Shown here in pieces: positions 32,013 through 62,206 of a stretch of DNA of 64,000 nucleotides (positions are counted from its first letter, which is position 1; each line of letters starts with the position of its first letter). The notes under the pieces were generated by a model. It ran no database searches, was not told the DNA's origin, and saw nothing but the letters and a program-made list of their open reading frames with translations. The DNA is from Sporopachydermia quercuum (lineage: Eukaryota). A program made the translations under genes and the position numbers. Location: positions 1,426,001-1,490,000 of the forward strand of contig BCGN01000003.1 of assembly GCA_001599295.1 (NCBI GenBank), written 5' to 3'.

Positions 32013-34647
32013 TCATTCTTTCAGGTTTTGTAAGACAGAAAAACCATTACGAGGTGTTCTAACAACTGGTGCTTTCTTCATAGGTTGCGCTGGTAATGTT
32101 TGAGTCTGTTGTTGAGCTTGTTGCTTATTCACTGGTTTCTTTGTTCTTTCTATGTTCTTTACCTTATCCTTCGCCTTTTCTTTCGGTTTTTCCTTATCCT
32201 TTTCCCTATCCTTGTCCTTATCCTTATCATTGTTTTTATTGTCCCTATTGTTCCATGAGCTTCTATCTCTAGGTTTGGAAGTTTCTCTTTCATTGTTGAT
32301 TCTAGAATAAGTACCACCTGATCTTCCATCTTGTGGACGTATTCTTCCTCGTCCACGATAGAGTCCTCCTCGATAACCTCTATAACTTTTCGGTCTTTCA
32401 TCAGTTTTATCACTATCATCTTCAGAACGTAAAGGAATGTATACTTCGGGTTTTGGTGACAGTGTTGAGGTATATTTTTGATGAATATATGAACCCTCAG
32501 CTAATCTGCTTCCTTCTACTTCTTTTTCTTCTTCTTCTTCTTTCTCTTTTTTTTCTTGCTTATTCTGCTGCAGCTCCAATTGTTGTTGTTGTTGCTGTTT
32601 TAACTTGAGCAGTTCTATTCGGTCTTTCAAGGTAGATTCCAATTCTTCCACACGGGCTTCACTTACTGTTGGCGAACGAGTATGGCCTCTGTTGTATTCC
32701 ACAGTAACTTCATTGAGAGATGAGGTCAGATTTTCAGTTTGGGCGCCGCTCTTTTTATTACCTAGTAAACGAGAAGGTTTCAGTATAGTTGGTTTACCTT
32801 TGAATTGTCGCTTATCCTTCAAGTTAGCCGTAGCTGTAGGGGTTGCATCTTTTGAGGTATCAATAGGTGTGTTAATAGTAGAATTAGTAGTCGTCGTAGC
32901 AGCATCAGCACTAGTATTATCATTCGAATTGGTACTTTTTATGGAATCTTTTTCATTCTTTTCCAAAACCTCAGAGACTTTCTTCTCATTTCGAACAAGC
33001 TTATCTTGTTGCTGGTTCATTTCTTTTTCAACTATTTCTCGTTTTTCCTTCTCTTCATGTTCATGTTCTAATCTGTTTTCGATTTCAATGAATTTAGAAG
33101 CTGTGTCAACAGGCTTTGCTTCGCCAAAGGGATTGGATTTCTTTGGCTGAGGCGCCGGTGTCGATGCTGATTCAGTAGGAACAACNGTAATATTAGAAGG
33201 TGATAAAACGGTAGGTGTTGTCCGCCTTGTTGATTGAAGTCTATTTTTTGATATTGCTATTGAAGTAGTCGGTACAGCTGACTTATTAGCATTCGTATTG
33301 TTGATAATAGGATTATGGCTAACATGAGACCAATCTAAGTTATCTGTTACAGGCGCAGTGTGTGGGATATCGGTATCTCGATCGCTTCCTGCAGCTGCTT
33401 CTGATGTTGGAGTAGATCCTGTTGGTCCTCCAACTAACGATCTTCTTGGTCCAAATGAAGGCTGGTGTGACTTTTGCATAGCAACATTTACTCTGATTGG
33501 TTTCCCATACAAATGGAATCCTTCCATATCCAAAGCTTCTTTTAACAATTCTCTGGAAGGGAATTCTATAAAGCAGTAACCTTTTGACCTTTGCGTGAAA
33601 CCATCTCTGATTAGTTTGATGGATACGGGTTCATTATGAAGAGTGTCAGTTATTGCGGTGTGTATATCTTCTTCTTGAACATTTGGATGTAATCCTGATA
33701 TAATAGCAGTAAAAGGAGGTTGATTGGGTACAATTCCTGCATCTGGGTGAATATATCGTCTGTTATAAGAATTATAAGAATGAGATGAATAACTGCTTTC
33801 TCTGTTATGATTTGAGTATCTGGAGTTGTCATGATTATTATAGGAGTCTTGTCGTCTGTTAGAATAAGAAGAATATGCTTGACCGTTTGAGGCTTTAGTA
33901 TAATGTTAGTGACAGAAATATTATGCGTGTCAAGAAGACATAATCAGAGGTTTGGCATTTGAAGTAGGTGTCACAATGTGTAACAATATGTCTATTTTCA
34001 TGATATGGTTCATAGTGAGGATGAATTCAAAGTAATGATGATTTGGCTTACTAAAAGTCGGTAGGCCTGCATAACTCTTGTCCTTTTGATTTGTATTTGC
34101 CAATTCGATTGACAAGGCTACTTCAATACGGATGCATATGCCCATCAAAGAAAATGCAGCTCTCATGAAAAATCACCATCTCCTTAGCAATCGATGATAC
34201 TCCTCGTTACTAATTAACAATTGGAAACACATACAATCATTCAATTTGATATTAGAAACATCAAATTCATCATCATCAGCCCACGAATCAATTGCTGTAC
34301 CTGTAGTTGATAAGTTAATAACAATTCTCGATTCTTATAGTTCATTCTCATCCAATGATCAAAAAAACTATTCATGGCATAGTTTTTCATCAATCAAATA
34401 CATACTTTGAGCAGCTACAAAAGCTGTCAAGTCAACTTTTTTTCCCTTTTTATTAGCTGAAAATAGTCAATTATTAGTTAGTTTCTCCGACAAATCAACA
34501 GCAATTCAGATTGCTCTTGGCATCAATCCAAATATATTGATGGTCATGCTTGATGACACTGTGCCAAACTGTGAACACAGATTGTCATTACATCAGGAAC
34601 ATTGTTTCAACCTCTGGAGTGAACATCAATAGTCAAAACTTACCCAT
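32013..34647 (-). CDS. PSP2: PSP2-like / eIF4B-eIF4H-related RRM and RGG protein; 4 exons 34647-34644, 34456-34406, 34300-34235, 33892-32013
   Basis: Spliced N-terminus MANKKGKKVDLTAFVAAQSTAIDSWADDDEFDV; RRM (PNQPPFTAIISGL...SKGYCFIEF); KKSNPFGEAKPVDTASKFIEIE; RG-rich YRGYRGGLYRGRGR. It lacks the DWxxARG repeats of Tif3, which favours PSP2. Confidence 0.75.
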
Positions 34648-35145: not shown

Positions 35146-36400
35146 ATGGAAATGTGGTTATGGGATGATGGATACAAATGCCGATTGATCACGTAATCTG
35201 TATTGGGTAGTCTGATAAGACAGGAGAAGAGTGAGACGTAGAAAGGCGATATAGAGAAAAGATGAAAACGATTTATCGTTGTTAAGGGTTTGTTTGTTCA
35301 AAAGTAGGTATGTCAGTGCCTTCATTAAATTGTTATCAAATATCAAACTGTTTGTTTCTATTTTTATGCTATCTCTCATTTTTTGTCTCCATGTTGGCAG
35401 GTTTATAGTTTCCGAAATTTAAAATCTTACTTCCCCAAAGTATATGCAGTTGAAAAGTACGATTTGACATTGACTTTCACTCAAGAATCATTGTCTTTAG
35501 AAATGTCAATCTTTCATCTTATTCATCAAAAGGCTATTACATCTAAAAATGAATCTCTTAAAGCTTGTATTGTTTATATATTTTCATACATATATAATTT
35601 GATGTTGTATCATAGCTGAATGAAAGACTCCATGTTGTCAATTAGTTCTAAGATATTGACTATTATCTCCGAAACTTTTTGCCTATGTCTTTATATGTAA
35701 ACTGCTAGTTTCTTTNTCAAGAACCAATATCAATTATAACTAAAAATATTCTTTCCAGGAAGAAATTGGCTTACTACGTAATGTCCTACGGCCTTTGCTT
35801 TATTACTCGTTCTATCATTGCTGCTTCAAATTGAGGAAACTAATGACTCTTGTACGAATCATGAATATGACTTGTCCAATATAGTAGCAATACGGCATAC
35901 CTTGGCTATGCATAACATGTATCGCTTTATACAACTTCAAAAGTTTTTGAATTTGTCACAATTATATCCTATGAATCTATCGGATTCAAAACCATACCTA
36001 ATTATCCTTGCTCACCCTCTAACTTATTTCAACCTCTGTTTCCTAATAACTCACTAATGCCTTTTCCCTTCATTATATCTCTCCACTGCCCCCTTTGGAA
36101 ATTCCAATAAACTTCCAATAAACTTCTCGCTAAACCCCAAATGAAATTAGACTTGCAGATATCATACATCATTGTTGCAGCTTACCTTTTGAACCTTATA
36201 TTTCACTGGTAACAAGAACCCAACGCAAAGCTTACAATTATACAATGGACTATTCCACTTAGAAGAAGGAAATCCTACAAATAAATCAAATTAACTCTTC
36301 TTATTACTGCACTCTATGTAAATCAACTAATTGAATTTAGCTAGTAATCAGGATTACTAAGCGCCCAATTGTTCATATCAATTAGAGGTACAACTGTGAC

Positions 36401-36425
36401 ATTGCCTTGCCTTGCCTTGCCTTGC
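36401..36425 (+). repeat. (TTGCC)n microsatellite
   Basis: TTGCC four times plus a partial copy. Confidence 0.8.
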
Positions 36426-36745
36426 TTGTCCTTACTATTATTGATATTGCTTGTCTCACTGACAATTGGGCTCACCTGCCTATTAATTGATCTATCGACT
36501 AACCGTTGTCAACTTCTATAAATCAATTGGTATAAACAGAAAAGAACTTTTTGGCATTTTTTGGTAATTTATTCAATATTTGTTCTACTCGCTTGACTGT
36601 TTTATTTTTGTTTCTACTATATTATTTATGACCATATCGCCTATATTACCTCCCATCTAAGTAAAGTGTATGGATATGTAATATATACTATTGCTATCGC
36701 TACTACTACTGCTACTATCACAACAATAACAACTACTTTTTTATT

Positions 36746-39700
36746 ATGTGGATCCAAACATTACCTTCAGAAATACTGGAGATTGCTTCTTCATTTGCTT
36801 TGAAAAGTTTGGCTTATCTTGTTACTGGTTTCTTGCTGCAACTGCTTATCCTAAGGCTACTATATTGGTTCACAGGGATAAACATCTTATCATTTGGCCA
36901 CTTGTCTCTTCATAGAATTCGCTATGAACTAAAACCTGGGTTGAAAATGTCCGTCAGAAAGATCGGAGTTTCCTTTCATTTACCTAGTGTATCCAGACCC
37001 GGATGGTTTACACTATATATAGTGAGTCCTCAGTTTGAGCTGGACTCACAAATTCTTATTACTAAAGGATCGAAAGTAAAACAAGCCAAGGGAGCAAAAG
37101 AACCTGGACGAAGGAGAAAATCTAAGGGAAGAAACAAAGAAGGTGAGAATCCTGATGACTCATTATTAATATGGCTGGACCAATTCACAACATCTTCGGA
37201 TAATGATTTAAGCTATATCTCACTGAAAAGTATTCCTCATTTACCAACAATCCTATCTATTGTTAGATGGATGAGATTGCAGTATTTTGATTTGTCTTTG
37301 TACAATCTAACTGTTGCATATGCATCTTTGGGTTGTGTAGTGATAGGAGAAATGCATTATAAGCTTAATCTTGGTGATCGATTAAGTAATTTAGAGTCAA
37401 TTTCTGGCACTCTTTACTCATTTATGCAGAACCCTAAAGTAACAAGGCCAATCATCCAAACGTTTACGTGTCGTGAGATTGTTGGTTATTCATTTGAGGG
37501 CTCAATTGTTGATAAGACAACTGGTCAACCTCCTGCGTTTGATTTCTTTCATAAAATCAATTCTGAAGTCCATCAAAGAAATCCCGGTTATAATTACTCT
37601 CATTATTCTAAATTAGTTGATGTTTTCACTATCAAGGTTAATTACATGTTTGATACTGAAAAATATTACTTATTTGATGCATCTGTTGATGTTAGAGTTG
37701 GCACATTAACGTTATTGATGAATAAGATTGCCGCTGCCGTTGCTGTTATGATGAATGATTATAGATTGGGCAAAGAGTATTCTGATTATGTTGAAAACGA
37801 AGAAAATGCTCCAGAAGAGGTGACTTCCAAAGACCCGGGATTGTTTTCTAGTACATCTGAATCTCCGGATATAGTTTCCGATATTGATGCTGAAGATCTA
37901 ACATCTGCACTTAATTCTATCATATTAGCGGCCAATGCAGTGAAACTGATTCGTGAATTTGAATTCAAAGTTGATGTGATTTCAGTCTTCAAGCTTGCTT
38001 TGAACAAGAAATGCCATCAGCAGAATATCTTTTTCTCATTTGTATGTAATGATTTTCTGATTGATATTAGCAGATTGAACCCTCATAACCCAGGATTCAA
38101 GCTATTCTTCTCTCAAGATGAATGTGCTCACCAAGCATTATGCGTCATGAATTCAATTCATTTGGGTGTTCATAGAGGCAGTGAGATAGACGAATTAATG
38201 TACATCCCTGTTGTCAACTATATATCTAAAACCAATACGTTGTTTCGAACGCTAAGGCTGATAATACAGAACATCGGGGTGAGTTCTGGGGTTAATATCC
38301 GAAAAGATACATGTGGAGGTGAAAGTAGGAAAAAGAAATCAGAAATTATAACGGAACAAGACCCAGAGAATATAGAAGAGACACCGGAAGCTAAACCGAA
38401 TGAAATCCCAACTTCGGAGTCTTCAGAGACTTCAGGGTCTTCAGAACCTTTACAACAACCAACTCATAGTATTCTCAACGGCACTCTCAATGTTTCATTT
38501 CCGTCATTTGATTTCGCAGAACATCACATTCCCATATTACTGAAACTAATTGCGTGCTTCAAATCAGCAGACACATCGTCATCAGAATTGAAACCCCAGA
38601 CGACTTTGTCGGGAAACCCTTCCGAACAGCACATGACTTCAACCGGTAAATTATTAAGCAAACTCCAGAAGTTTATTCCTATTATGTGCCTTAAAGTTAT
38701 ATTATCGGCTCCTGCTCTCCGAATGTCGATAACAACAATTGAAAATGGTAAATCTCGAGATGAAATGATCATTTCTTCTTGTGAGGCTTTAGTACTACAA
38801 TTAACGGGTGAACATAATCACTCCAACTCAGTTTCCGAATCCGATTCTGATTCCGAGCGCGATTCTGATTCCGAGACCGAGAAAACTTCCGAACATAAAC
38901 ATCGTGGAATCTCATACAAAGCATTAGTTTCTTGCTCTCTCAATACTTTTGAAACATGGTATCGGCTAAAAAATGGAGCAAGAGTTGATTTAATAAGATC
39001 AGAGAGTCTGTCTGCTTCTATTGAAAGCATCCTAACTAATGGAAGGGTTCTTGCTGCTATTGATGTCGGTTTGAATTATTTCCACGTTGACTGTCAGCGG
39101 AAAGAAGTTGTTGATGGGTTCTTAAAACTAGCAGATATAATCCGATCGACCAAAGCTCCGATTTACTCTGCTCCGAAACCTCAAAATACACAAGCAAATC
39201 TCCCCTTAGTGGCATCATTGCCGTCTTGGATTACCAATATCTCGGTTAAACTACAAGACTTCTCCATTGCTTTAGCGTTACAACTAGAACTGAAAGATTG
39301 TAGCTCGGAAGATGAATCTATGGCCAAAATACCAAGAGGATTCAAATTAAGCTTAGTTAGTGTTTTGGCTAGGTATAATAATCAGTATGGGGAAAGACCG
39401 GAAGATTTTGATCGGAATTTGGAGATATTATTATCGGAATTAAAAGGATTAAAAATACAAGAGGATTCCGAGAGCGATACATTTGGTTCAAATCAGTTTT
39501 TGAGTTTGCCAGAGTTAACTTACCGAAGCCGATATAATCCGAAAGTGAATGAATCATGTTTGGATATTAAGACAATCCGGTTGTTTTATACGTTGAATTT
39601 GCATTTCCTAATAGCAATGATAATGTTAGCAGGTGGAGGACAACCAGAAACTATACCTGAAGAAGGAAACCCCGAATCGGACACTATATCGGAAGGATCT

Positions 39701-42700
39701 GTTGATGGCTCAAGTATTTTGCTGAGAACTCCGTTATCACGTGCCTTTTCAAATAGAACAACTGAAACTATTACCCCCCTTTCCCCACATACCCTACCAG
39801 CCCCGCTCCCTAACCATTCCTTCAAAACCGACATCAAAACTGTTATTGTCAAAGCAATCTTACCAAATGATCTTCATTTGATGCTTGAATTGTCATCATC
39901 TGTTTTATCTAAGTTACCATATACTCCGCCAAGTTTTCAAACTAAGCATTTAAGGTTGTATACCCTGAGTCCCACTATCAAACATACTTGGGTTAAGGTT
40001 CTTTCGGCTCAAGAGTTCAAATTAGGGAAAACTCAAATAGAACCGGGTTCAATCAAAGCTCCCACTGTCGTTGAAGACAAATGGAACGAAATCTCGCTTC
40101 CAGAATCGATGGAGCCAACGGAACCCATGGAATCGGCCGAGTCAACCAAAACGGCAGAAGTGAAGCCGGAAATCTCAGCCGACATGAAATCTTTACTTAT
40201 TGCCTTACCTCATCAGTACCCCTTCTATAGGATTTTTGATAACATAATCACAGCCGCTAAAGCTGTCAAACAAATTCATTACTCGGCTAAGCACGGCATA
40301 ACTGAAATGATAGCAGGACCGACTATTGAACAACCGAAGGTTCCTCATAGAACTAGAATTAAAGCTTCTAGATTCTTATTATGCATTCATGAAGACTCTT
40401 TTGAAGCTGAATTAGGAGTTATATTTCAAACCGGGTTGAACGAGCAGTTAGCTCGGATAAGCCGATGGGAATTGTTTAATAAGAAGTACAAAACTTTACT
40501 GCAGATATATCAAAAGCATGGTCCATCAAGGTTAGGACATCCTCATACCGATAAGGATGTATTTATTTCCAATCTAGAGTTGGAGGATTTTTCCGAAGAT
40601 CGGAGGAAAGGTCCATCTTTCCGGCTTCCTCGTTTACATAACCATAGTAAAAGAAGAAACACTGCGGACGCTTTCAAGTCATCGGAACCTAGAACCCGAT
40701 CTCCGGGATTAGATGATATTATGACAACAATAGCGGAAGCTCGGGAAAGAATGTATGAAGGATTTTCCCGAACATGGATCAAAAGAATCCAAGCGGCTAG
40801 ACGGTATGGTGAAAAACAAGCTCGGAAAGCTCGAGAAGGATTTTTAGGCAAAGATTGTATTCCGTCATATGAACTTTTAAGTTCGGAAAGAGTATTAGAA
40901 GATCCAAGAGCTTTCCCGTTATTTTCCTATATGGTTTCGGAATTAGACCTGACATTGGACAAACCGAGATTCCGGCTTGAAGATTTACCGGAATATCTTG
41001 CCGAAACAGGTAAGAACATGCCGAAAACGGCGACTTTTACCCTTTGTTTCCCAATGTATATTCAAGTCGATTCTTGTGATTTAAGAGTCTTACTCCGAGA
41101 TTACCCGCTTCCTTTACTACATTTACCAGGATTTCCACCCGATCAGCAAGCAAAGCCTGAGTTTTCCGGTAGCTCCGCTACTCGGTTCTCCTGGGATTTA
41201 GTTATTGCCGAACAGTTCAACTCAAAACCTTCAATTATCCGGAGAATCTTAGTTCCGTTAGTTCCATTGGCTATATCGGCTGCGCCGACTTCGGTGTTTT
41301 CTATTGCTGTGCCGAGAACTGTTTCTCCGGTTCAAATGTTCTCTCGGTTAGTTATAACATCATTATCATCAGCGCCAACCAGAATCTCGTTTGCTCCTTG
41401 CCTTCAGCCGGCTTTACAGTCAATGATGCTTTGTTTCGATAACTTCACTAAACCTCCTCTGGATCCGTCACCGAAAATCGGGTTCTGGGATAAGACTCGG
41501 CTCATCGTACACGGAAGAGCCCGGATAAATTGGCCGGAAGCCGAAGTCCATCTAATCTTAAAAGGATCCCGTTCTCCTTATACCCTTATGGGCAACGGTG
41601 CCGGATTCTCAATGGTTTGGCGTAAAGGTGTTATACTAGACGTTAATAGAGAAGACAATCCAAAGGAATTCCTCATTGTTCAGTCATCGGAATTCTTCTT
41701 TACTATTCCAATTCTTAATTCCCAAGTCTCTGAGCTCTGGAAACCCAACGAAAATCAAGAACCAATCAGAATGATCCACCAAAAGATCGTTATGAAGTTA
41801 AGTGACCGGGTTAAATGGCAGTTAGGTTTATTATTTGAGAGAGATGACCCAGAAGCAGGGAAAACCAAGCCAATAGGAAGCAGAACTAATCATTTTGCTC
41901 CTCATTATACTGTTGAGCTTGCTAATAAGATATATGTTGATGATCTAGATCATTATGATGCCTATAAGGATTTCCGGTCCCAGTATATTCATATGGCTAT
42001 TTCTGTTCAATCACCAAAGGATCGGAACTGGAGAGAATCAGGTTCTGAGACTGAAGCATATGCATATAATTCGGTACATTTATCGCCGAGAACATTTGCT
42101 CATTTTTTCAATTGGTGGCATAATTTCTCGGGAATTAATTCCCTTCCGGTCCGACATGGGAAAATATTCCATTCAGCTCCTGCCTCGGTTAAATTCGGTA
42201 AGCATTTATTCACTATGAAGTACCAATTATTACTAGCGCCATTATACATGTCACATTTATACCGGCATTCGGCCTCGGAAGAGTTAACTCGGGATAATCG
42301 CCTAGTTGCTACCGGATTAAAGGCTCAGTTCAGAAGTTTCACTATGGATTTACATCAAAGACGGCAACAGGTTGTCCAGAGAAATTGGGTGTTGGGAAGA
42401 AGCCGGACAATGTGGAAGATGAAGATGAACAGAGCCGAGATCGATTTTGCCGAATGCGATGTTCGGGTCGTTTCGGCCCAATTTGATGAAATGTCGGCGC
42501 ATGAGTTTTTAGCTAGGGCCGCAGATTCAGATACCTCATCTTATGAATCGTCAGCAAAGGCAAGTAACAATACTCCAATAACTGCGGGTCAAAGTTGTAG
42601 GTTTGTTTTCGGATCAGGAACGGGGTCAGTATCAAATGGTGATTCTAATTGGCTCGACTCGGATGATTATGTTGAGTTATATGAACCGCTTAAACCCGAT

Positions 42701-45700
42701 TCGGTTCCCGCGGTTCAAATTCATCCGTTGTTGTATACCCCGAGAATCACATACTTCAGGGATACCGAGGCCTCGGAAGCAAGGGAATCCACGTCCGAAG
42801 ATCGGAAAGCCAACAGAAAATATCCACCTTTCGGTTCGGAACCATCGCATGACTGTGTGATCGGCTTAGTTAATCCCGAAACCACGGAAGCAGAACTCAC
42901 TTTCTCCCGAGCCAGTGAAATCGAAGAGCAAATCAAAATCAATGAAGAGTTGCTTGATACTTTGATCCGAACTTTGGATAAATTTCCAGACGATAAAGCT
43001 ATTCAGGAGAGAATTAATTCTACTACCGATATGACGGAAAACCTTCGGAAACAGCTACAGATTGTGCATGCAATGCAAGCTGAGATTCGGGTCCGAGAGT
43101 TAAAACGAGCCGAGACCAAATTGGAAGCAGAAGCTGATAAANCGCAGGACGATTCCGGGTCTAACCTTAACTATACAAATACCAACAACACAGCTCTAAC
43201 AACAGGAGATACCGAATACGAAAGTTCTATTTCTTCTGCCGACGATTCACATGTTCCTTTAAGTTATAATCCTTCCCCGCATCTTGCCCTTCATTTGACC
43301 TCGGAAGACTGGCAACAAGAACTGCTCCGAACACCAATTGTGAATCCAAAGAGGCTCTCAATTCCTTCAATGATAAGCCGATCGTCGTTTGTGTCTATGA
43401 AAATGGCTATTGATTCATCCTCTTACCGCGGATTCTGTAATAGATTTGTTGTGCATAATATGAATCTCAGGTGGAACAATACTGTCCGGAACCTTATTTA
43501 TATTTATTCACATAAGGTTTCCGATCGCCGAGCAATGTCTTTCTTTTTATCCCGAAAAGCGGTTAAAATGGTAGAAGATATGATTAAAGAAGTGGAGCTG
43601 GAGAGAGAAAAGGAGAATGAATTGAACGACATGAAAAGTGGAGGATCTAGAGGAAGCCGAGACGGAAGCCAAAGTGGAAAGAAAAGAAGCAGCTCGAGTG
43701 ATAGAACTGGCTATAATTCCGATAGTAAGACTGAATTCTCTTGGGAATCGGACCACAAGACAAATGCCTATTCCGGTAATAGTGATTCCGAATCACGACC
43801 AGACTCCGAATCCGGCCAAACCCATGTGAAGCCCAAGCATAACAAAGCAAGATCGTCCCGAGAACGCATGAAATATTTTGAATCGGACCTCCGTTCGGTT
43901 AACGCTAACGAATCTTACCGAGAATCCTACATTTTAAAGTTCATTGCACCGCAGATCCAACTCATTTCGGAAGAGAATCCGAATTCTGCAGCTCTAATTA
44001 CATCACATGATCTTGAAGCTAAATTTATCGACGTGTCGCGCGCAGACCAACAAGATGATGATACCACGTTAGTAGAAACGCGTTATGGCGGAGTGTTCCG
44101 AGGCTTTCACGTGTTTGTATTTAATAAGAATGAAGTCAAAGCCGATAACATTCCTATGATCTCAAAGCCAATTTTTGGAGATGAGGTCGATGAATCCTGG
44201 CCCCCATGGTTATCACCGGAATTATGTTATGATAGCTCACCATTAAAGGATTATTTAGTTATTGAGAAAACTTCAGCATGCTTAAGATATGATAAGCCTA
44301 ATGTATTGTATATGGATCAGAAATCATCACCAGAAGGAGAACCAAAAGTCGGAATGGATTCCGAGGCGAACATCGGAAACAATGATGGCACAAATGACGG
44401 AACAGATAATCAAGCTAGCGATGGATCAAATATCGGAAATCATGATGACTTTAATAATTGTTCGGGGCAAGCTTTACGAGGGGATCACAATAGAAATCAT
44501 AGATTATCACTAGATTTCCCTAAACTTATTGCTTCTTGCACTTCTAAACAATATTATGCTTTATTCTCAATTGCTAATGATCTATTAATCTATTCAGAAC
44601 CTCATAGAAAGAAAGCAGAGGATGAAATGGAAAAAATCATCCTGGCAACCGATTTCCGCAATTTGTTCGGAATCCCTCAGAGAATTGAACGTCTCCAGAG
44701 AGAATTCTCAATCCTTGCTCAAATTAAACATTTCATCTTACAAGATGGTACTTTACATCCTTCCGATAAGAGAAATCTGGCAGTATTAAATGCAGAAATC
44801 GAAAGATGCCAAATAGAACTATTCACGATGTTAAAGGCTCTGAAAAAGCATTCTCAGCGTAATGTCGGTCATGATGTTGATCTATTCAATAGTTTGAAAT
44901 GGGTAGTTGGTGCAGATGAGATCATTTGGCATTTATTCCTTGACGCAGGAAATCCATTCCTTGATTTTGCAATGGCTAGATTTTCTTTTAATAGAATAGA
45001 AAAGCCAAGCGGCGCCAATTCGAATACTATAGAAATCGGAATGATTCAAGGCATCAATCTACTGAATAATATATTATACCCTGAATTATTATCACCATAC
45101 AATTATGATGAGGAAGAAGAAGGAGATGATGGTAAGTTGATTACTGTTCGATGGACCATGCTTGAACCAATTGGTGGAATTCCCATCATGGCGAAATTCG
45201 AAGCTATGTTGAAACCATTGAAGATTCAATTAGAACATGATACTGGAAAAAAGATAATGGAGTATGTTTTCCCTACTGAAGTGGAGCCAGATAATGAGTC
45301 CAGTAATGGAACTGGAGCCGGTTTTAGCGAATCCAGCGTTTGGGCTTCGGATTCAACTTTATCATTTATGGATGAAGCATCGGAAGATATGGTTAGTATG
45401 ATGTCGGATCAATCCCAGGACCAGAGCTTGGCTTCCGGGTCAATTGCCCAATCGGGATCGAGTTCCGGCTCGCGAGTTCCATCTGGAGGGACCGGGTCCA
45501 GATATAGCACAACATTAGGATCTACTCGGTCTAGATTATCGCTGTCTCCGGGCACTCGGTTATTCAAACGGAATGCTGGACAACAACCTGATGGTTCGCA
45601 TCGATCAGTTCTAGCTAAACTCAACGATGATTCGAGCTCAATGATCTCAACCGGTAACTCTTCAAGTCTATCTGTTGTCGGATCTGCTAGAACCTCATCA

Positions 45701-46462
45701 ACAATAAGTCGGAAAGATTCTCGGTTACCCAAGAACAAGAAACATAGTCGGAAGAATACGGACGATGACAGTAAAGACGATATGTCAAAAATGATGGTTC
45801 GTGCTTCACAATACTTCACTATTATTAGAATCCGGGTGGAATCCGTTATTTTATGTATTAGTTATAAGGGACCGGGACATAGAAGCATTGCTGATGTTCA
45901 AGGGCTGGAATTCAAACTTCCAGTGTTAGAATATCATAATATGACCCTTTCGAAGAAAGATCTAGCAGAAAAGATTGAAAAGGATGTTTTGAAAGCAGTT
46001 CTCTCCCATGCAGGTAGAATTATTAAGAATAAGTTCAAATCTCATACCAAAACGCGATTTTCGGAGCCATTACATCAATTCTCATCATATTCATCATTCA
46101 TGCCGTTACAAGAGTTAAGAGAGATGGGTAAAACTACAGAAACCACTGAAAATAATAGGAGAATGTCTCGTATAAGAACAATGCTCAGTGATAAAGATGA
46201 GAATATCAATAGCAACGGTAGCGGTGGAGATAAGTCAGAGAAGCCTGAAAGAACAGCATCATCAGTTGCTTCATCAATTAAAAGAAAAGTAGTGTCAACA
46301 GCAGAATCAGTCAAAAATGTTACTATTGGTAGTTCAAGTCAAGATAGTGGCGATGATAACAATAAGAAAGGTGAAAATGACCATTCAAAATCATCTGATT
46401 CTGATTCTGATTTTGATAAAACTGAGAATACCCTTGGATCAATTTCTAGTGATGATGATTGA
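36746..46462 (+). CDS. FMP27: Bridge-like lipid transfer protein Fmp27/Hob1-2 (Hobbit/BLTP2), 3238 aa
   Basis: N-terminal TM anchor; family motifs KIGFWDK, SWPPW and LRDYPLP; Apt1-like C-terminus (MMVRASQYFTI...CISYKG). Confidence 0.92.
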   Translation: MWIQTLPSEILEIASSFALKSLAYLVTGFLLQLLILRLLYWFTGINILSFGHLSLHRIRYELKPGLKMSVRKIGVSFHLPSVSRPGWFTLYIVSPQFELDSQILITKGSKVKQAKGAKEPGRRRKSKGRNKEGENPDDSLLIWLDQFTTSSDNDLSYISLKSIPHLPTILSIVRWMRLQYFDLSLYNLTVAYASLGCVVIGEMHYKLNLGDRLSNLESISGTLYSFMQNPKVTRPIIQTFTCREIVGYSFEGSIVDKTTGQPPAFDFFHKINSEVHQRNPGYNYSHYSKLVDVFTIKVNYMFDTEKYYLFDASVDVRVGTLTLLMNKIAAAVAVMMNDYRLGKEYSDYVENEENAPEEVTSKDPGLFSSTSESPDIVSDIDAEDLTSALNSIILAANAVKLIREFEFKVDVISVFKLALNKKCHQQNIFFSFVCNDFLIDISRLNPHNPGFKLFFSQDECAHQALCVMNSIHLGVHRGSEIDELMYIPVVNYISKTNTLFRTLRLIIQNIGVSSGVNIRKDTCGGESRKKKSEIITEQDPENIEETPEAKPNEIPTSESSETSGSSEPLQQPTHSILNGTLNVSFPSFDFAEHHIPILLKLIACFKSADTSSSELKPQTTLSGNPSEQHMTSTGKLLSKLQKFIPIMCLKVILSAPALRMSITTIENGKSRDEMIISSCEALVLQLTGEHNHSNSVSESDSDSERDSDSETEKTSEHKHRGISYKALVSCSLNTFETWYRLKNGARVDLIRSESLSASIESILTNGRVLAAIDVGLNYFHVDCQRKEVVDGFLKLADIIRSTKAPIYSAPKPQNTQANLPLVASLPSWITNISVKLQDFSIALALQLELKDCSSEDESMAKIPRGFKLSLVSVLARYNNQYGERPEDFDRNLEILLSELKGLKIQEDSESDTFGSNQFLSLPELTYRSRYNPKVNESCLDIKTIRLFYTLNLHFLIAMIMLAGGGQPETIPEEGNPESDTISEGSVDGSSILLRTPLSRAFSNRTTETITPLSPHTLPAPLPNHSFKTDIKTVIVKAILPNDLHLMLELSSSVLSKLPYTPPSFQTKHLRLYTLSPTIKHTWVKVLSAQEFKLGKTQIEPGSIKAPTVVEDKWNEISLPESMEPTEPMESAESTKTAEVKPEISADMKSLLIALPHQYPFYRIFDNIITAAKAVKQIHYSAKHGITEMIAGPTIEQPKVPHRTRIKASRFLLCIHEDSFEAELGVIFQTGLNEQLARISRWELFNKKYKTLLQIYQKHGPSRLGHPHTDKDVFISNLELEDFSEDRRKGPSFRLPRLHNHSKRRNTADAFKSSEPRTRSPGLDDIMTTIAEARERMYEGFSRTWIKRIQAARRYGEKQARKAREGFLGKDCIPSYELLSSERVLEDPRAFPLFSYMVSELDLTLDKPRFRLEDLPEYLAETGKNMPKTATFTLCFPMYIQVDSCDLRVLLRDYPLPLLHLPGFPPDQQAKPEFSGSSATRFSWDLVIAEQFNSKPSIIRRILVPLVPLAISAAPTSVFSIAVPRTVSPVQMFSRLVITSLSSAPTRISFAPCLQPALQSMMLCFDNFTKPPLDPSPKIGFWDKTRLIVHGRARINWPEAEVHLILKGSRSPYTLMGNGAGFSMVWRKGVILDVNREDNPKEFLIVQSSEFFFTIPILNSQVSELWKPNENQEPIRMIHQKIVMKLSDRVKWQLGLLFERDDPEAGKTKPIGSRTNHFAPHYTVELANKIYVDDLDHYDAYKDFRSQYIHMAISVQSPKDRNWRESGSETEAYAYNSVHLSPRTFAHFFNWWHNFSGINSLPVRHGKIFHSAPASVKFGKHLFTMKYQLLLAPLYMSHLYRHSASEELTRDNRLVATGLKAQFRSFTMDLHQRRQQVVQRNWVLGRSRTMWKMKMNRAEIDFAECDVRVVSAQFDEMSAHEFLARAADSDTSSYESSAKASNNTPITAGQSCRFVFGSGTGSVSNGDSNWLDSDDYVELYEPLKPDSVPAVQIHPLLYTPRITYFRDTEASEARESTSEDRKANRKYPPFGSEPSHDCVIGLVNPETTEAELTFSRASEIEEQIKINEELLDTLIRTLDKFPDDKAIQERINSTTDMTENLRKQLQIVHAMQAEIRVRELKRAETKLEAEADKXQDDSGSNLNYTNTNNTALTTGDTEYESSISSADDSHVPLSYNPSPHLALHLTSEDWQQELLRTPIVNPKRLSIPSMISRSSFVSMKMAIDSSSYRGFCNRFVVHNMNLRWNNTVRNLIYIYSHKVSDRRAMSFFLSRKAVKMVEDMIKEVELEREKENELNDMKSGGSRGSRDGSQSGKKRSSSSDRTGYNSDSKTEFSWESDHKTNAYSGNSDSESRPDSESGQTHVKPKHNKARSSRERMKYFESDLRSVNANESYRESYILKFIAPQIQLISEENPNSAALITSHDLEAKFIDVSRADQQDDDTTLVETRYGGVFRGFHVFVFNKNEVKADNIPMISKPIFGDEVDESWPPWLSPELCYDSSPLKDYLVIEKTSACLRYDKPNVLYMDQKSSPEGEPKVGMDSEANIGNNDGTNDGTDNQASDGSNIGNHDDFNNCSGQALRGDHNRNHRLSLDFPKLIASCTSKQYYALFSIANDLLIYSEPHRKKAEDEMEKIILATDFRNLFGIPQRIERLQREFSILAQIKHFILQDGTLHPSDKRNLAVLNAEIERCQIELFTMLKALKKHSQRNVGHDVDLFNSLKWVVGADEIIWHLFLDAGNPFLDFAMARFSFNRIEKPSGANSNTIEIGMIQGINLLNNILYPELLSPYNYDEEEEGDDGKLITVRWTMLEPIGGIPIMAKFEAMLKPLKIQLEHDTGKKIMEYVFPTEVEPDNESSNGTGAGFSESSVWASDSTLSFMDEASEDMVSMMSDQSQDQSLASGSIAQSGSSSGSRVPSGGTGSRYSTTLGSTRSRLSLSPGTRLFKRNAGQQPDGSHRSVLAKLNDDSSSMISTGNSSSLSVVGSARTSSTISRKDSRLPKNKKHSRKNTDDDSKDDMSKMMVRASQYFTIIRIRVESVILCISYKGPGHRSIADVQGLEFKLPVLEYHNMTLSKKDLAEKIEKDVLKAVLSHAGRIIKNKFKSHTKTRFSEPLHQFSSYSSFMPLQELREMGKTTETTENNRRMSRIRTMLSDKDENINSNGSGGDKSEKPERTASSVASSIKRKVVSTAESVKNVTIGSSSQDSGDDNNKKGENDHSKSSDSDSDFDKTENTLGSISSDDD

Positions 46463-47420
46463 GTTGAGATAGTTGAATGACTAACTGAATGGCTAAATGG
46501 CTGAATAAATGGCCAATTGACTAGCTAGTAAAGAAAGAAACTTGTATTGTGAATGAGCTGTTGACTTTGTTTAGTAGTTATTTGGCTGGCTAGCTACATG
46601 ATTTGTAAGAGCAATGAAAACTGGAGGACTGGATTGTTCAATTTTGGTATTTAAACATTGCTAAATTAATCTGATCAAAACATGACTGATTGATTCCTGT
46701 TTTTCATTTTTGATGTATGATATCTGTTTTATTATTTATTTTGTAGATTAAACTACTGTATAATAGGTCTAATTGATATATTAATTGTTTACATATCCCT
46801 ACTAATTCTACTATTGTTACTATCTATTTGTTGAAATTTGTTTAGCTTTCATCGAACAAACTAGCATTTACGGTGATTGTTATAGCTACTTCTAAGCAAA
46901 TTTTTTCTCAGAAAGTGTCGAGGCTTATACGAACTAATAAGTGAAGTAGTCTATTGATAGTTTTATCCCTCTTCGAGTTCATCATTAGCATTGTCATAAT
47001 GATCAGAGCGCATAATCAGAAATATGACACTACGTCTCACTTTATGAGGCAAGGATAAATCACGTGGAAAAATTAAGGGCGAAATAATTTTTCTAATTCA
47101 AAATTTGGTTCGTTCCAAATAGGGTAATGACTGTTGAAGAAATATTTTCTGCGTAAATTGCATACCCTCTTGTCTCATTAACTTCATTTCAGCTTATGCC
47201 ACTCACATTCCACTCAAAACTATGGCAGTGCGTCAACCCACTCACTCGAACGGGACCTTCCTGGTTAGTGCCTCAGTGTGGATGTGGAAGATAGTAAGAA
47301 GCTTCTTTATCAATATACTTAAATTTTAAAGAATCTTGAGGACGCAGTAGAACTAAGGAAAGAGGAAAAACCTGTTATTCATCGCAATAATTAATAGATC
47401 ATCAACGAAAATATATCAAG

Positions 47421-52833: not shown

Positions 52834-55417
52834 CTACTTCCTATGAAACATCTTCTTCAACCCTCCAAATCGTTTCTTCTTTTTTTCTGCTTTTGGTGCA
52901 GTAACATAACTATCTCCTCCATCTCCTACAGTACCAAGACCTTTACTTTTCTTAGGACTATCAAATCTACTGGTTTTTATAGTTGGTTTAACAAACACAT
53001 CGTCATCAGAATCAGAATCAGCAAATCGTGAAACAAAAGGCTTTGAAGAAACTGGCGTTGGTGATTCACTTCTTTTACGTGAATGCGAGTAAGATGGTGA
53101 TGGTTTAGATGGAGGTATTGCAAAGGAATTCAATGTATGAGCTGCAAATCCATTGCCAGTACCTACATCGGCACCAGAACCAGCACCACCAGAAGCAGTA
53201 GCAGCAGATGAGACGTTAGCAGTACTGCTGTTATTATGACTATTATGACTATGCATAAAACTATGACCATGACCATGACTAGAATTACCACTGGTTCCCC
53301 CATCAACTCGTAATGACAACCGTTTAAAAGAGTCAGTTGGTTCCTTTGCCGGAGGATGGCTTCTTAGTGTTGTGAATCCCAGAACACTGCCCGGGCCACT
53401 ATTATTGCCATTGCCATTGCCGTTTCCATTGCCATTTCCAGGCTTCTTAACAGAAGCAGCAGCAGCAGCAGCACCAAATGAAAGCTTTGGTAGGACCAAA
53501 CGGCCTTTTTCGATCCGGGAAGGCGTTCGTTTCACTTCGCTTTCGGGAGGAACAACAATTTCTACTTTCTTTCTTGAACGGGTCCTCGTTAATGACATTT
53601 CATCGCTAGAACCAACCATTGCTCCTTCATCACCCGAGTAAAAAGAAGAGTCACTCATATCCGAGAAAGAAAGCCTTCTGGAGTTCCTCATGGCAGATTT
53701 CATAGGTTTGGCATCATGTCCAGGAGGTGTTGATAGATGAATTGGTTCTGTAGATAAATAACCTGCAGACCTCAATTGCTTAGCTAAGGAAATATGATTA
53801 TTGCCAGACGTTGAATTGGAACTCGATTCATCGTACAAATCTTCATCATCACCAGAACCAGGTTTCAAGAAAGAGTGCCTTTTAGGTGTAGAAACTGGCG
53901 ATATGGTTTTAGTAGTATTGACGTTATTTTGTTGCCTAGTAGTTAATGATTCGGTATCTAAATTGTTGATGGAAGAAGAGCGCGATCTGATTTTCCTTGT
54001 TGAAGTTAAATTGGACGGACTGGGAACGGTAGGGCTATCATTAGGCAAAGCGGAAGAGATATTCTGAGAGTGTTTTAGATTGATTTTAGGAGACGGCGGT
54101 CGAACTGTTACTTCTACTAGTGTTGAGTTAGTCGAACTGGCAGAATCAAGTTTCTCCGTTGGCGATAGAGGGGAAGGAACCAGAGAATTCCGTTTGGAAA
54201 TAGTGGAGACTTTAGTAGGAGAAGAAACAGATTTGGGTTTAGAAGTTTTTTCCCGAATTTCTGGTTCTCCACCATCATTTCCGGTATCATCATCTAGAAC
54301 TTCCATAATATCCGGCAAAGTTTCCACTTGGGTTGGCAATCTCTGGACATTTCTGGATTTGGATTTAGACTTTCCTTTAGTTCCGCTTTTACCCGAATGT
54401 CTCGGCTTCGTTATCGAGATCTCGGGGACATCAGGAACTTCAACCTCGACCTGTTGTAATCCCGTCGCTGTAGGAATCCATTTTTTTATTATCTTCGTTT
54501 TCACTTTCGGTTTATCTGCTGATACCAAACTGTTATTTCTGCTACTACTTCTACTGATAATACTGCTATTGCTGCTTCCAGCTATTGAACTGGCTTTTGA
54601 TGTGCTTGCAGATCTTGTGAGCTTTAATCTTGGAGCATCATCAACGATGACAGAACTTCTTTTACCTTGTTGTTGTGGTTGTTGTTTAGCAGTGGCACTA
54701 CCAGAAGAAAACTTCATAGGCTGTTTGGCACTAGGTTCAACGACCTTTGTTTTAAAGAAAGGATTTGAAGAAATTCTTGCTAGAGACTGTTGAGTTAATG
54801 ACATAGTTCTCCTAGGTTTTTGTTTAGAGGCAGTAGCGGTAGTAGTAGATGCAGCAGATTTACCACCAGCAGTACTATTAGTAGTACTACTGGCAGTAGT
54901 ATTAGTAGATTTATTCTTATTGTTAGCTACTGCCTTTTGAGCGGCAACAGTAGTATGTCCAACTGATGATACACTACTTGCCTTAGGTGCACTTTTATTT
55001 AAAGCAGTTCTGAAGTTGGAGATTGATGCAGATTTCGTCAGTGAGCTTCTCTGATTTTTTCCTTTTGATCTCAACTGAGAATAAGACCCAGTATCAAGAG
55101 ATCCAATAGAAGAAGTCCTATTATTAAGAGAAGCTGAAGAAGAAGATGGGGTACTCAAACCTGCTGCGGAAGCAGCAGCCACAGCATTGTTGCTAGCTCT
55201 AGGAATAGATGGTGGCTAGTAACTGTTAGTAATTTGAATTGTATATCAACACATAATGTGTATATGATCAATAGCTAATAGATCAGTAGCCCAATAGTAC
55301 GTGTAGTAATATGCTACGTCATACAAATGAGTAACACTAGATGATAATACTTACAGCATATCCAACCCCAGTATATGAATAGGATGATATTGAGTAAGTT
55401 CTTGAATTTTTACTCAT
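52834..55417 (-). CDS. Ser-rich eisosome/cortical protein of Seg1/Seg2/Msc3 type; 2 exons 55417-55355 and 55215-52834
   Basis: Motifs RRTMSLT, KKWIPTATGLQQVEVEV, PMKSAMR and basic C-terminus KKKRFGGLKKMFHRK resemble Seg1/Msc3. Intron GTAAGT(55354)..TACTAAC..TAG(55216) joins an ATG exon in frame. Confidence 0.7.
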
Positions 55418-58717: not shown

Positions 58718-61700
58718 ATGGAGCCTGAAAATTCCAAGAGCGTTGTACTGGATCTCCATGAAAGTGGCATAGTAAGTATATCTCACTGTATAGTTATTTC
58801 ATACTATCTACTTGAAAAGATAAAAGAGACCTTTGATTTCGGTAGCTCTTGTCGCAGTTTTTGCATTAATTTCTAACTGGAGTTCTAGGCAGTTTATAAG
58901 CTTGTTAATGGGGAGAAACGAGGCCGTGTTTTTGTAAGCTTTAGCCAAAAGATGGCTACTGTTTATGGAAGGAGAAGTTCAATATTTGGTACCGCGTGGA
59001 GTCCTAGGTGGCCTACGAGTAAGGCTCAGCTGTCAATCACGTGTTTCGGCATTCTCGGATGCTTAACTGTGGACACTGGATATTTATTATCCGTTGTGGC
59101 TCAGACCGTTGTGGCTACTTTCTACGATCGGAATGGCGATCCGCATGAGATTAATAAGGTTAACAGATGCCTGGTGATTCCATTGACCTATTTGGGAGCT
59201 TTGCCGATATTTCAAAAATATTTAGCCTCAATTCAACCAGAAACGGAAAGAGAGGCTAAGCAAAATTTTGGAACAGAATCAGATGAGGAAACAGAACCCG
59301 ATGAAGAAGAACTAAACGAACTTGTTCGCTTTGGAACTAATAAAAGCCTAAAAGATAGTTCAGCTGGCTTCAAAGGGGAACCAACCGATCCAAATTGCTT
59401 GAAATCCACCTTAAGTTTAGAACCGGAAACAATACTGGAAGAACCTAAACAAATATTTGAAGATGTTATTGTTTCTGCTATGGGATTACCTAAAGAACAG
59501 ATAACAAAGCTTAATGAAACTACACACGGTTTGCCGAGCCTACCAGGTTTAACTATCCCTTTAAGGAAATCCTGCGCCGACCCATCGGCAACTACATACA
59601 ATAACCCCATTTCAACTACGGGAGAACTTATTACCGAGTCATCTCAGGGGCCTGATTGGACGTTACTTCGAGACCAGCTTTCGAGGTTGCAATCATCTCC
59701 GGATAAGAAGCCTAAAAGAGGAACGGGCTTAAAGCTTAAATTAAACAATAAGGTTGAACCTAAATCCAGGGTTTCACCGCGTTTGACTAAGAAGTTCGTT
59801 AAAGTTTTAACTTCTATAATCAATTCGGGTTATTTATTTCATTCTGCCACATTAGATATCAGCCACCCGTTATGTTTAGACGAAAATGGGAATATGAGCC
59901 CCCAAATTATCTCAAGCAGGCAACAATTACGCCAAAACAAGTATTTTTTCAATAAAAACATGCTGGGACCTTTTCTACCTTCGGATGTTTCAATTGTGGC
60001 TATTGAAGGCTTTGTTGACTCTTTCCGATTCTCAGTATTTAATTCTAATTTTAATTTTGCCACAACTAAAACAACACAAAATGCCCAATTGGTAGTTATT
60101 TCCAGAAGAAGTACAGAAAGATGTGGNGTTCGATATTTAAGAAGAGGAATAAACGATGAAGGGAATGTGGCTAATTGGGTGGAGACAAATCAGTATTTAA
60201 CTATTGAATCAGCCGAGCCACAGGAGCCACAAGAATCAGTACCTGCATACTATCAAATATTCTCTCGTTACGATATAATTCGCGGCTCTATTCCTCTTTT
60301 CTTTCAACAGAGTTTCTATAAACTTCAACCAACACCCAAAGTAGTATGTCCTGTGACCCAGAAAAGAAGCCGTTTGGCATTCGCCAAACACTTTAATAAT
60401 ATGTTCCAACGATTTGGTTCAGTTCTTGCAATTTCTCTTGTTGAGAAGGAGAATCGGGAAAAAGATCTCGGCACGGCGTATGCCGAAATGGCCGAGATGT
60501 TTATTAAGTATTTGAAAGACAATTCTGGAGAAGATAGTATGGAACACGGAAAAGATAAAGGAAATTTAAGTTCAGAAGCAGATTCCAACAAAGATGCCGC
60601 TGGGAAATCTGAAAATGGGATAGCTGTGGACTCCACGGTCAAATTTGATAGTAATATTGAGGCTAAACTGAGACAGTTTTTTAATTTGGATGATTGGAAA
60701 CCAGGCAAATTCGATTTTGTATGGTTTGATTTCCATAAAGCTTGTAAAGGATTGAAGTTTGAGAATGTGAGCAAACTATTTGAATCGGAAAAGATAGTAG
60801 ATACAATAGCGGAAAAGATAAATGATGAACAGAAAACGGATATAATAGCTTCACCTGATCAAGAACCAGATTTGAATAACAATTCTATTACTGGATCACA
60901 GAACAATACCAGAAACGATAACAAAGCAGAATCTGCGCCAAATTCGCTACGATCAAAGCTGCAATCTTCATCATCACCAGCTTTATTACCATCTTCCTCT
61001 TCAACCTCTAATTTTGCATCACCTCCGATTCCTATTCCTGCTTCAGCGATGGCCCAATTCGGATGGTCCGAGTTTCTAGGATCCGGAAATCAAACTGCAT
61101 TTCAATCCGGCGTTTTTCGTATCAACTGTGTGGACTGTCTAGATAGAACAAACGTTGTTCAGTCAGCTTGTGCTAAACGTTTGGTTTCATTGCAGCTGTC
61201 CAAATGGAAATTCACCCTTTCAGATGTCCAAAGTTTTAACCAGCAGTTAGCTTATCTATGGGCAGATAACGGAGATTATATTTCTCTTCAATATGCATCT
61301 ACAAATGCTCTGAAAGGTGACTTCACTAGAACTTCTAAACGAGATTATCGTGGAATCATTAATGATGCTTTCCTTACATTATCAAGGCTATATTTTGGCA
61401 TAGTAACAGATTTCTTTCTACAATGTACCATTGATTACCTTTTGGGGGTCTCTAAAGACAACTTTCTTGATGTATTTGATACTGATTTAGGCAAAATCAC
61501 GATGGGATTTAACGGGAGCGTTCCTAATAGCGGTACGTTTTCTGCGGCTTCTATCAGTTTATCTTTGACACAGGACATCATTCAACAATGTGTAAACAAC
61601 AACAACGAGACATTGCAAGATGTTCAACAACATCTATGGGTGAAATCATCAATGTGTGAGGAGCCAAGAAAACAGCAATTGAAACCTTGTTTGGTGATAG

Positions 61701-62206
61701 TCACTGGAACATGGTTTTACATATGCGATTTTGAGTTCGGAGAGCAGAGAATTGCTAAGCTACAGACTATAGAGAATAGAGACGTTGAAGGAGTTGAATT
61801 TGGATGTTATTTTGAGAAAAAACTTGGGAAAATGAGTGAAAATCCTGAATGGAACTCAGGATTTGTAATTAGATATCAAAGGAATTCAGAGGGGTATTCA
61901 GAAGATAATTTAAATACCGGAGATGATATTGATAATGATGACGATAACGATAACGGTAAAGATAATGGTGAGGATGAGGTGAACGATAACGGAAATGATC
62001 TTGAGTCAAGCAATTCAGACACTCAAATTGCATTTAAATTCACTGGAATTGGATTCGAAGATGGGAAAAGATTTAGTAAAGAAATTGCATCTATTTTTGG
62101 AGTCGAATTGATAGAAAAAGATATTGTTGGGTTGAAAGAGGCTCAACAAGATACCAGCTTGTTTGATGTTATTGAGTATAGAATGAAGAAGCTTATATGG
62201 ACTTAG
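58718..62206 (+). CDS. Sac-domain phosphoinositide phosphatase, Sac2/INPP5F-like; 2 exons 58718-58771 and 58889-62206
   Basis: ISRRSTERCGVRYLRRG, NVANWVETNQ, RGSIPLFFQQ, FDFHKAC, intact CX5R(T) motif RINCVDCLDRTN, WADNGD. No C-terminal TM pair. Intron GTAAGT(58772)..TTCTAAC..TAG(58888) is in frame. Confidence 0.85.

Follow-up and report, generated by a model that had tools for sequence, protein, structure and literature searches.

Why should one very long gene in a 64,000-nucleotide stretch of the Sporopachydermia quercuum genome be so rich in CCG and CGG triplets? The stretch, here called the window, comprises positions 1,426,001 to 1,490,000 of contig BCGN01000003.1, and all coordinates below are counted from its first letter. 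The gene is an open reading frame (ORF) on the forward strand (36746..46462; 3238 amino acids), the sole ORF of at least 150 amino acids at this place. By its sequence it is assigned to the Hobbit/FMP27 family: residues 1149-3129 match the Pfam family Hobbit (PF10344) with E=3.6e-255 and 850.7 bits, against a cut-off of 24.5. A first-pass annotation had described patchy, frame-independent CCG/CGG enrichment within this gene and had suggested a DNA-level signal, or a mutational or repair regime, overlaid on coding sequence. The evidence considered here comes from this one locus within one 64-kb window.

A four-base word in the interior of the Hobbit ORF

Most statistics were calculated on the core of the feature (38270..44400), which contains 230 CCG and CGG triplets, or 37.5/kb, compared with 4.9-17.5/kb across the 13 other ORFs of the window. 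The hand counts behind the annotation proved exact: 16 CpG dinucleotides in 40561-40860, of which 13 have a CCG or CGG context and 3 do not, 12 in 41161-41340 (11 and 1) and 4 in 37201-37500 (0 and 4). CpGs with a CCG/CGG context make up 246 of 365 (67%) in the whole Hobbit ORF and 404 of 1082 (37%) in the remainder of the window. Over kilobases, the block region has a GC content of 0.41-0.43 (0.36 elsewhere) and a CpG observed/expected (o/e) ratio of 1.03 (0.60 elsewhere).

The enrichment is independent of reading frame, as had been claimed, with all three codon phases contributing in 38270-44400 (39, 46 and 34 for CCG; 28, 58 and 25 for CGG). It was compared with two sets of 1000 synonymous shuffles. 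When the amino-acid sequence was fixed and codons were redrawn from the other ORFs, 200 occurrences were observed against 67.0±7.6 expected (z=17.6), a number reached in 0 of the 1000 draws. When synonymous codons were permuted inside the region, which retains its own codon usage and its own GC content at third codon positions (GC3), the expectation rose to 148.0±6.4, and the 200 observed were again reached in none of the 1000 draws (z=8.1). As the excess persists in both shuffles, with GC3 and amino-acid content controlled, neither amino-acid need nor simple codon bias suffices to explain it. CpG contexts were not raised equally: CpGs outside CCG remained at 11.9/kb and were fewer than expected under the second shuffle (73 observed, 129.8 expected). 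The signal is one of the DNA, laid over coding sequence, and depends neither on frame or strand nor on amino-acid content or GC3.

The excess of CCG and CGG is real, but the enriched word is narrower than either triplet. Counted on both strands, TCGG/CCGA occurs at 20.6/kb in the core and at 2.7/kb in 12 other ORFs, a 7.6-fold difference. The enrichment falls to 3.4-fold for CCGG (4.7/kb versus 1.4/kb), 2.2-fold for GCGG/CCGC (3.3/kb versus 1.5/kb) and 1.75-fold for ACGG/CCGT (4.2/kb versus 2.4/kb). TCGA, one base away from TCGG, is not enriched at all (2.1/kb versus 3.0/kb, 0.7-fold), and ACGA, ACGC, ACGT and GCGA are unchanged; GCGC is at 1.1/kb versus 0.5/kb, from 7 sites only. CpG contexts lacking the CGG triplet (ACGA, ACGC, ACGT, GCGA and TCGA) thus span 0.7- to 1.1-fold, and enrichment is limited to CpGs that form CGG or CCG, which makes this triplet the conserved core of the sites.

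Alignment of the 126 TCGG sites from both strands gave a consensus of approximately H-TCGG-A-W, of which CCGG is a weaker form. Sense and antisense sites share the same flanking preferences, with G avoided at -1, A preferred at +4 and A or T at +5. Across CGG sites, T occupies -1 with a share of 0.55, A occupies +4 with 0.43, and A or T occupies +5 with 0.77. The strands are balanced in the core, both for the triplets (119 CCG, 111 CGG; p=0.64) and for the word (69 CCGA, 57 TCGG; p=0.33). Among pairs of sites 2-40 nucleotides apart, start to start, no distance stands out apart from the overlap inherent in CCGG (29 cases), the maximum being 7 pairs against about 2.2 expected in about 160 classes, and no relative orientation is preferred.

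The extent of the feature was determined from occupancy, defined as the number of codon pairs carrying TCGG, CCGA or CCGG divided by the number in which synonymous choice could create one of them. Occupancy is 155/340 (46%) in 38270-44398 and 114/1101 (10.4%) in the 13 other ORFs (odds ratio 7.25, log odds 1.98, p=3e-42). It is 7/63 (11%) in the first 1.5 kb of the Hobbit ORF and 1/28 (3.6%) in the last 0.56 kb, so both ends of the ORF are at background and the block lies wholly inside it. A two-state hidden Markov model (HMM) run on synonymous opportunities placed a block enriched in TCGG, CCGA and CCGG, at synonymous positions and codon junctions, at 38609..45872, with 175 of 393 opportunities used inside it, 12 of 84 before it and 1 of 30 after it. 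The block contains 139 TCGG/CCGA, at 19.1/kb versus 3.3/kb in other coding DNA, and 35 CCGG. Its 3' limit is fairly sharp, with 18 of 41 opportunities used before 45898 and 1 of 28 after it. Of 209 windows of 1.5 kb across the 64 kb, 22 were flagged, and all of these form a single run at 37501-45300.

The annotation had also described dense patches alternating with depleted stretches. This did not hold: when counted per 300 bp in 38270-44400, the sites follow a Poisson distribution (dispersion 1.13, p=0.32), and the feature is better described as one block of about 7.3 kb. Two stretches within it come near to background. In 41546..41998, 6 sites were observed and 3.4 expected (z=1.5), with occupancy 4/19 (p=0.03 in comparison with the rest), and the HMM did not split this stretch off; 44399..45298 has z=0.3 and occupancy 7/35 (p=0.004). 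That these are real dips is weakly to moderately supported. The distal segment at 45299..45898, which encodes Ser/Gly-rich protein, is again enriched, with 21 sites observed against 7.2 expected for its amino acids (z=5.8) and occupancy 18/41.

At 38833..38874, on the forward strand, a tandem repeat finder located a Ser-Glu/Ser-Asp repeat spelled TCC GAx, with a period of 6 and the unit TTCCGA; this 42-bp tandem supplies about 5 sites. Of 32 Ser-Glu pairs, 24 are spelled with the word. A Ser-Asp repeat beyond the block, in the C-terminal tail (46394-46417), is spelled TCT GAT.

Within the 64 kb, the word is confined to this block and two weak patches. The first lies in the 5' half of the ORF at 58952-62206, from 59000 to 60700, where TCGG/CCGA occurs at 10.6/kb versus 2.7/kb; it contains 20 TCGG, CCGA or CCGG against 7.1 expected, with a Poisson P of 5e-5 that applies to limits chosen post hoc. 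The ORF as a whole has z=3.7, and its patch was not called by the HMM. By homology this ORF encodes a SacI-homology/hSac2 phosphoinositide phosphatase, which is lipid-related like Hobbit, perhaps by coincidence. The second, very small and only possible, is an HMM segment at 54258..54510 (7/14) in the ORF at 52834-54804, which has no Pfam family; it is weak and may be due to chance. Distance from the gene end does not predict the word, as the middles of other ORFs (1.0-1.7 kb from an end) are at the background level of 9.1/kb.

Codon choice and the level at which the force acts

Arginine switches from AGA to CGA or CGG only where the preceding codon ends in a pyrimidine. Arginine is encoded by CGA or CGG after a pyrimidine-ending codon in 55 of 95 cases in the block and in 43 of 210 elsewhere (p=2e-10); after a purine-ending codon the numbers are 8 of 54 and 32 of 194, which is background. 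Since the choice of arginine codon follows the preceding base, an explanation from codon frequencies fails. Serine before GA or GG is written TCC or TCG in 43 of 63 cases in the block and in 29 of 154 elsewhere, and AGT-Ser before G is depleted (7/98 versus 55/257). For proline, CCG is raised and CCT correspondingly lowered. CGG, CCG and CGA are rare codons in this DNA, and usage of codons that have no part in the word (Lys, Glu, Asp, Asn, Tyr and Cys) is that of the host. Codon-usage bias or translational selection was rejected as a cause: all three phases are raised, z is 8.1 even with the region's own codon usage, and the ORF ends are at background.

The sequences from which the word could arise are depleted without regard to mutation type. 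The transition neighbors of TCGG are reduced (TTGG to 0.84, TCAG to 0.71), and the transversion neighbors equally so (TAGG, TGGG and TCTG, each to 0.82). In the core, a gain of 139 CpGs is offset by a loss of 150 CpA/TpG, and the most depleted trinucleotide is CAG/CTG (0.70). The codon changes T>C, A>G, T>G and A>C all converge on TCGG/CCGA, which counts against the simple mutational regime put forward in the first-pass annotation. With four or more types of substitution leading to the word, and none of the excess reaching TCGA, the target of the force must be the word itself.

The annotation's suggestion of biased gene conversion, in its ordinary GC-biased form, was not supported. Third positions that would change from A or T to G or C without creating the word show no rise independent of context: AAG is at 0.35 versus 0.37, GAG at 0.27 versus 0.26 and GAC at 0.26 versus 0.21, and TTA rises. 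A CpG island is excluded by the ordinary density of non-CCG CpGs (11.9/kb, as elsewhere), by a GC content of 0.41 and by the position of the block in the interior of an ORF. Repair directed at T:G mismatches, of the very-short-patch (VSP) type, does not account for the equal depletion of transversion neighbors or for the A>C and T>G switches.

Protein need was also rejected. CGG-Arg positions are as conserved as those of other Arg codons (0.38 and 0.38), and CCG-Pro positions have 0.52 against 0.47 for other Pro codons. Occupancy is indifferent to constraint, at 0.45 at lineage-specific, 0.44 at variable and 0.50 at conserved positions, and word density along the protein does not correlate with conservation. 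Where the protein is free, its composition differs with location: dipeptides able to carry the word make up 84 of 395 in inserts within the block and 33 of 247 in inserts at the ORF ends (p=0.012).

Searches of the window found no Rfam family and no tRNA gene, and long dispersed or inverted repeats were limited to chance-level matches of 14-26 letters. The signal is not a general property of Hobbit genes: in 67 fungal metagenome Hobbit loci the gene/flank ratio of CCG+CGG o/e was 0.60-1.76, compared with 2.9-3.3 here, although some of those loci are near-duplicates and the top ratio of 1.76 rests on a flank of 783 bp. Across these loci (1.32 Mb), 0 of 4102 windows of 1.5 kb reach the threshold passed by 22 of 209 here. 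The first-pass annotation knew of no description of such a system in yeasts, and none of such a block was found in the open-access literature searched.

In S. cerevisiae and S. pombe, few trinucleotides mutate as readily as CCG and CGG (PMC4704713), so the word needs an active force, working against mutation, to be maintained.

What may keep the word in place

Two types of force fit a word of this kind: selection for a word that is read, or a conversion or repair drive directed at the word. The evidence leans toward the first, because the block is nested in one giant ORF with both ends at background, because unconstrained non-ORF DNA is the poorest in the word of all the DNA in the window (2.87/kb), and because T-CGG-A/W is the core read by a monomeric Zn2Cys6 protein. 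The nesting and the low non-ORF density together tie the block to the gene and not to a random region of the chromosome. Zinc-cluster proteins recognize CGG triplets, and monomeric binding is reported (PMC10954478). Pho7 of S. pombe binds as a monomer to TCG(G/C)(A/T)xxTTxAA, and a specific contact explains the T before CGG (PMC6265462). The block is tentatively interpreted here as half-sites arrayed through synonymous choices for a reader that recognizes a specific sequence in double-stranded DNA; the most plausible such reader is a zinc-cluster protein that binds CGG as a monomer.

Some 170-200 copies of a short double-strand word are overlaid on the interior of the Hobbit/FMP27 gene, leaving the protein unchanged. 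Under this reading, a weak, persistent force on the whole word would hold about 45% of synonymous opportunities in the state ‘word present’ across about 7.3 kb. At mutation-selection-drift balance, each site would have a scaled advantage of about 2, as judged from the odds ratio of 7.25. The agent would be a putative reader of single CGG half-sites preceded by T, for which a protein of the monomeric Zn2Cys6 type is the candidate; selection would keep the word that this protein reads, and the block would form a dense homotypic landing pad within the gene body. The role of a bound domain is speculative, and might concern chromatin state, suppression of internal initiation or positioning of the locus in a 9.7-kb transcription unit. 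In a broader and more doubtful form of the proposal, the block could be a novel intragenic cis-element, in which about 200 single CGG half-sites form a pad coated by the putative reader and impose a special chromatin or positional state over 7 kb of transcribed ORF, the same word possibly marking other loci.

Several observations weigh against a reader. We know of no precedent for about 200 such sites within coding DNA. The downstream part of the Pho7 site, TTxAA, is absent beside the TCGG sites, so that only the TCGGA/W core is alike. The CGG-binding Zn-cluster factor suggested in the first-pass annotation would, in its familiar form, bind pairs of triplets; no spacing or orientation is preferred between sites in the block, and classical dimeric Zn2Cys6 sites were rejected on this ground. 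Helical or nucleosomal phasing was likewise rejected, as the autocorrelation of spacings, a check that the annotation had proposed, gave no 10-bp or nucleosome-scale periodicity in the block and only the 3-bp peak of coding DNA. The excess is missing from the 67 other fungal Hobbit loci, and any function is therefore lineage-specific and not a part of general Hobbit biology. A scaled advantage of about 2 is equally expected from biased conversion. Finally, the weaker patches in two unrelated ORFs, both close to the 5' end, fit a process acting at many loci as well as they fit an element specific to one gene.

These last points lead to the main rival, which is unlikely: a motif-directed molecular drive, in which recombination or repair coupled to gene bodies would resolve heteroduplexes or breaks toward the TCGG/CCGA allele. 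Such a drive might take the form of repair like the bacterial VSP type, or might spread alleles at which fewer breaks form in cis, and the word would accrue neutrally until equilibrium. The effect size (log odds 1.98) lies within the weak range of biased gene conversion. Several properties of the block speak for such a drive: the indifference of occupancy to protein constraint, the drift of free protein positions toward word-capable dipeptides, the matching of CpG gain by CpA/TpG loss (+139 and -150), the same word in weaker patches in two other ORFs, and a function that is not evident. However, generic third positions are flat, as shown by AAG and GAG, and transversion paths (AGA>CGA, CCT>CCG) are as strong as transitions, unlike the outcome of T:G-specific VSP repair or of repair by TDG or MBD4. 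The nesting of the block in one ORF and the poverty of intergenic DNA in the word are unexpected for a regional neutral process, and no eukaryotic repair with such word specificity is known to us, which also counts against a drive.

In an alternative of low probability, a DNA-modifying enzyme, such as a cytosine methyltransferase specific for YCGG and aimed at deep gene bodies, would act on the word, and the word would be kept because its modification is useful there. Four-base specificity, strand symmetry and a CpG core would suit the recognition site of an enzyme, and the block does sit in a gene interior. Methylated CpGs, however, usually vanish by deamination rather than accumulate, and to our knowledge cytosine methylation is generally held to be missing in budding yeasts.

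Slightly less probable is a local, context-specific mutational regime, in which a single signature left by a lesion or a polymerase, for example C[T>C]G, is limited to the block. The exchange of CpA/TpG for CpG and the depletion of CAG/CTG are what such a signature would leave, and the changes TCT|G>TCC|G and TCA|G>TCG|G fit a single strand-symmetric transition. But the word is reached through four or more substitution classes, A>C and T>G among them, transversion neighbors are depleted as much as transition neighbors, TCGA is not raised despite containing the same CpG, and CCG/CGG are hypermutable in the model yeasts.

A function in RNA was given about as little weight, or marginally less. 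UCGG and CCGA might pair with one another or bind an RNA-binding protein, and so tune the structure, translation or localization of the long mRNA. The block does lie within a transcript, CCG and CGG are mutually complementary, and CGG, CCG and CGA are rare codons. Nevertheless, native windows of 300 nucleotides gain no stability over their synonymous permutations (z=-0.68 for the sense strand and +0.30 for the antisense strand), a protein-bound RNA motif would lack one-for-one reverse complements with mirror flanks, enrichment extends to all three phases, and there is no Rfam match.

The least credible alternative, very improbable, is that the block was copied from a foreign lineage or a hybrid subgenome with a different oligonucleotide signature: a block-like shape with a fairly sharp 3' limit (18/41 to 1/28 at 45898) and a raised local GC content would agree with this, but codons unrelated to the word match host usage, the ranking of identity to 27 homologs is alike in the block and the ORF ends, no such signature occurs in the 67 fungal Hobbit loci or the 1.32 Mb around them, and an import of 7.3 kb would seldom fall wholly within one ORF.

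The locus and its relation to known systems

The nearest database relatives of the Hobbit protein are 25-37% identical to it, and those named by source include Nadsonia, Magnusiomyces and Lipomyces; the organism is therefore a yeast-like ascomycete that has no close relatives among the sequences of the protein collection. The protein exceeds 26 of 28 listed relatives in length (range 1989-3305 amino acids, two of them above 3100), and it bears lineage-specific inserts rich in Ser, Glu and Asp. Ordinary eukaryotic Pfam families are present in 11 of the window's 13 other long ORFs; those at 32013-33527 (504 amino acids) and 52834-54804 (656 amino acids) have none at E≤1e-5.

Positions 36000-47000 show 0 differences between contigs from two sequencing runs in two studies, and with this identity over 11 kb the sequence is not an assembly accident, although both runs may derive from the source strain. 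Two runs of other organisms from the same study gave only matches of 36-37 letters, at less than 90% likeness, and no ortholog. The window contains 25 lone N letters (e.g., at 2633, 43142 and 60127), about one per 2.5 kb, with no shared context. They resemble ambiguity codes of the assembly; one lies inside the Hobbit ORF and gives an X in its translation. The positions of the 25 letters have no relation to the TCGG word.

The sense strand of the 9.7-kb ORF contains no copy of the canonical poly(A) hexamer AATAAA, where the other ORFs would predict 5.6 (Poisson P=0.004). GTA on the sense strand has about half the density found in other ORFs, and GTAA/GTAG falls to 0.36-0.45 in the block; TTAC is undepleted. 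These shortages may reflect avoidance of premature termination or of cryptic splice signals in a very long transcript.

Synonymous sites are usually credited with weak translational or splicing information only. In the Hobbit ORF one double-strand word of four bases takes up nearly half of the synonymous opportunities across 7 kb, despite the hypermutability of CCG and CGG in yeasts. A word read by a protein would constitute a dense regulatory or structural code over coding sequence; a word written by repair or conversion would amount to a eukaryotic molecular drive with specificity for that word. For fungi, both would be new.

Among known systems, GC-biased conversion tracts and CpG islands of the vertebrate type also raise GC content and CpG o/e on a kilobase scale. 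Here only YCGG/CCGR contexts rise, generic GC3 is flat, and the location is a gene interior and not a promoter. VSP repair in E. coli, which favors CCWGG, works through T:G mismatches only, and a search on the over-representation ascribed to it yielded only a general review; the uptake sequences of Neisseria and Haemophilus are genome-wide bacterial words. Like these, the word in the Hobbit ORF is enriched in all frames and orientations by a force at the level of the word. Unlike these genome-wide, bacterial words, it forms one block in 64 kb and also uses transversion paths.

The clusters of DSR (determinant of selective removal) hexamers in meiotic mRNAs of S. pombe are strand-specific RNA signals. 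They resemble the block in placing many copies of a short word in an ORF with the protein intact, and differ in their strand specificity, as TCGG here occurs alongside its reverse complement, which has mirror-image flanks. In sequence the block resembles the Zn2Cys6 sites, especially that of Pho7: a CGG core, T before it, A or A/T after it, no fixed orientation on double-stranded DNA, and single triplets. Those sites occur in one to a few copies in promoters, whereas the block has about 170-200 in coding DNA over 7.3 kb and lacks the downstream TT/AA part of the Pho7 site. The block lacks a defining feature of each of classical dimeric zinc-cluster sites, GC-biased conversion tracts, CpG islands, the VSP-type repair signature and codon-usage bias, and behaves like a homotypic cluster of half-sites or a driven genome word.

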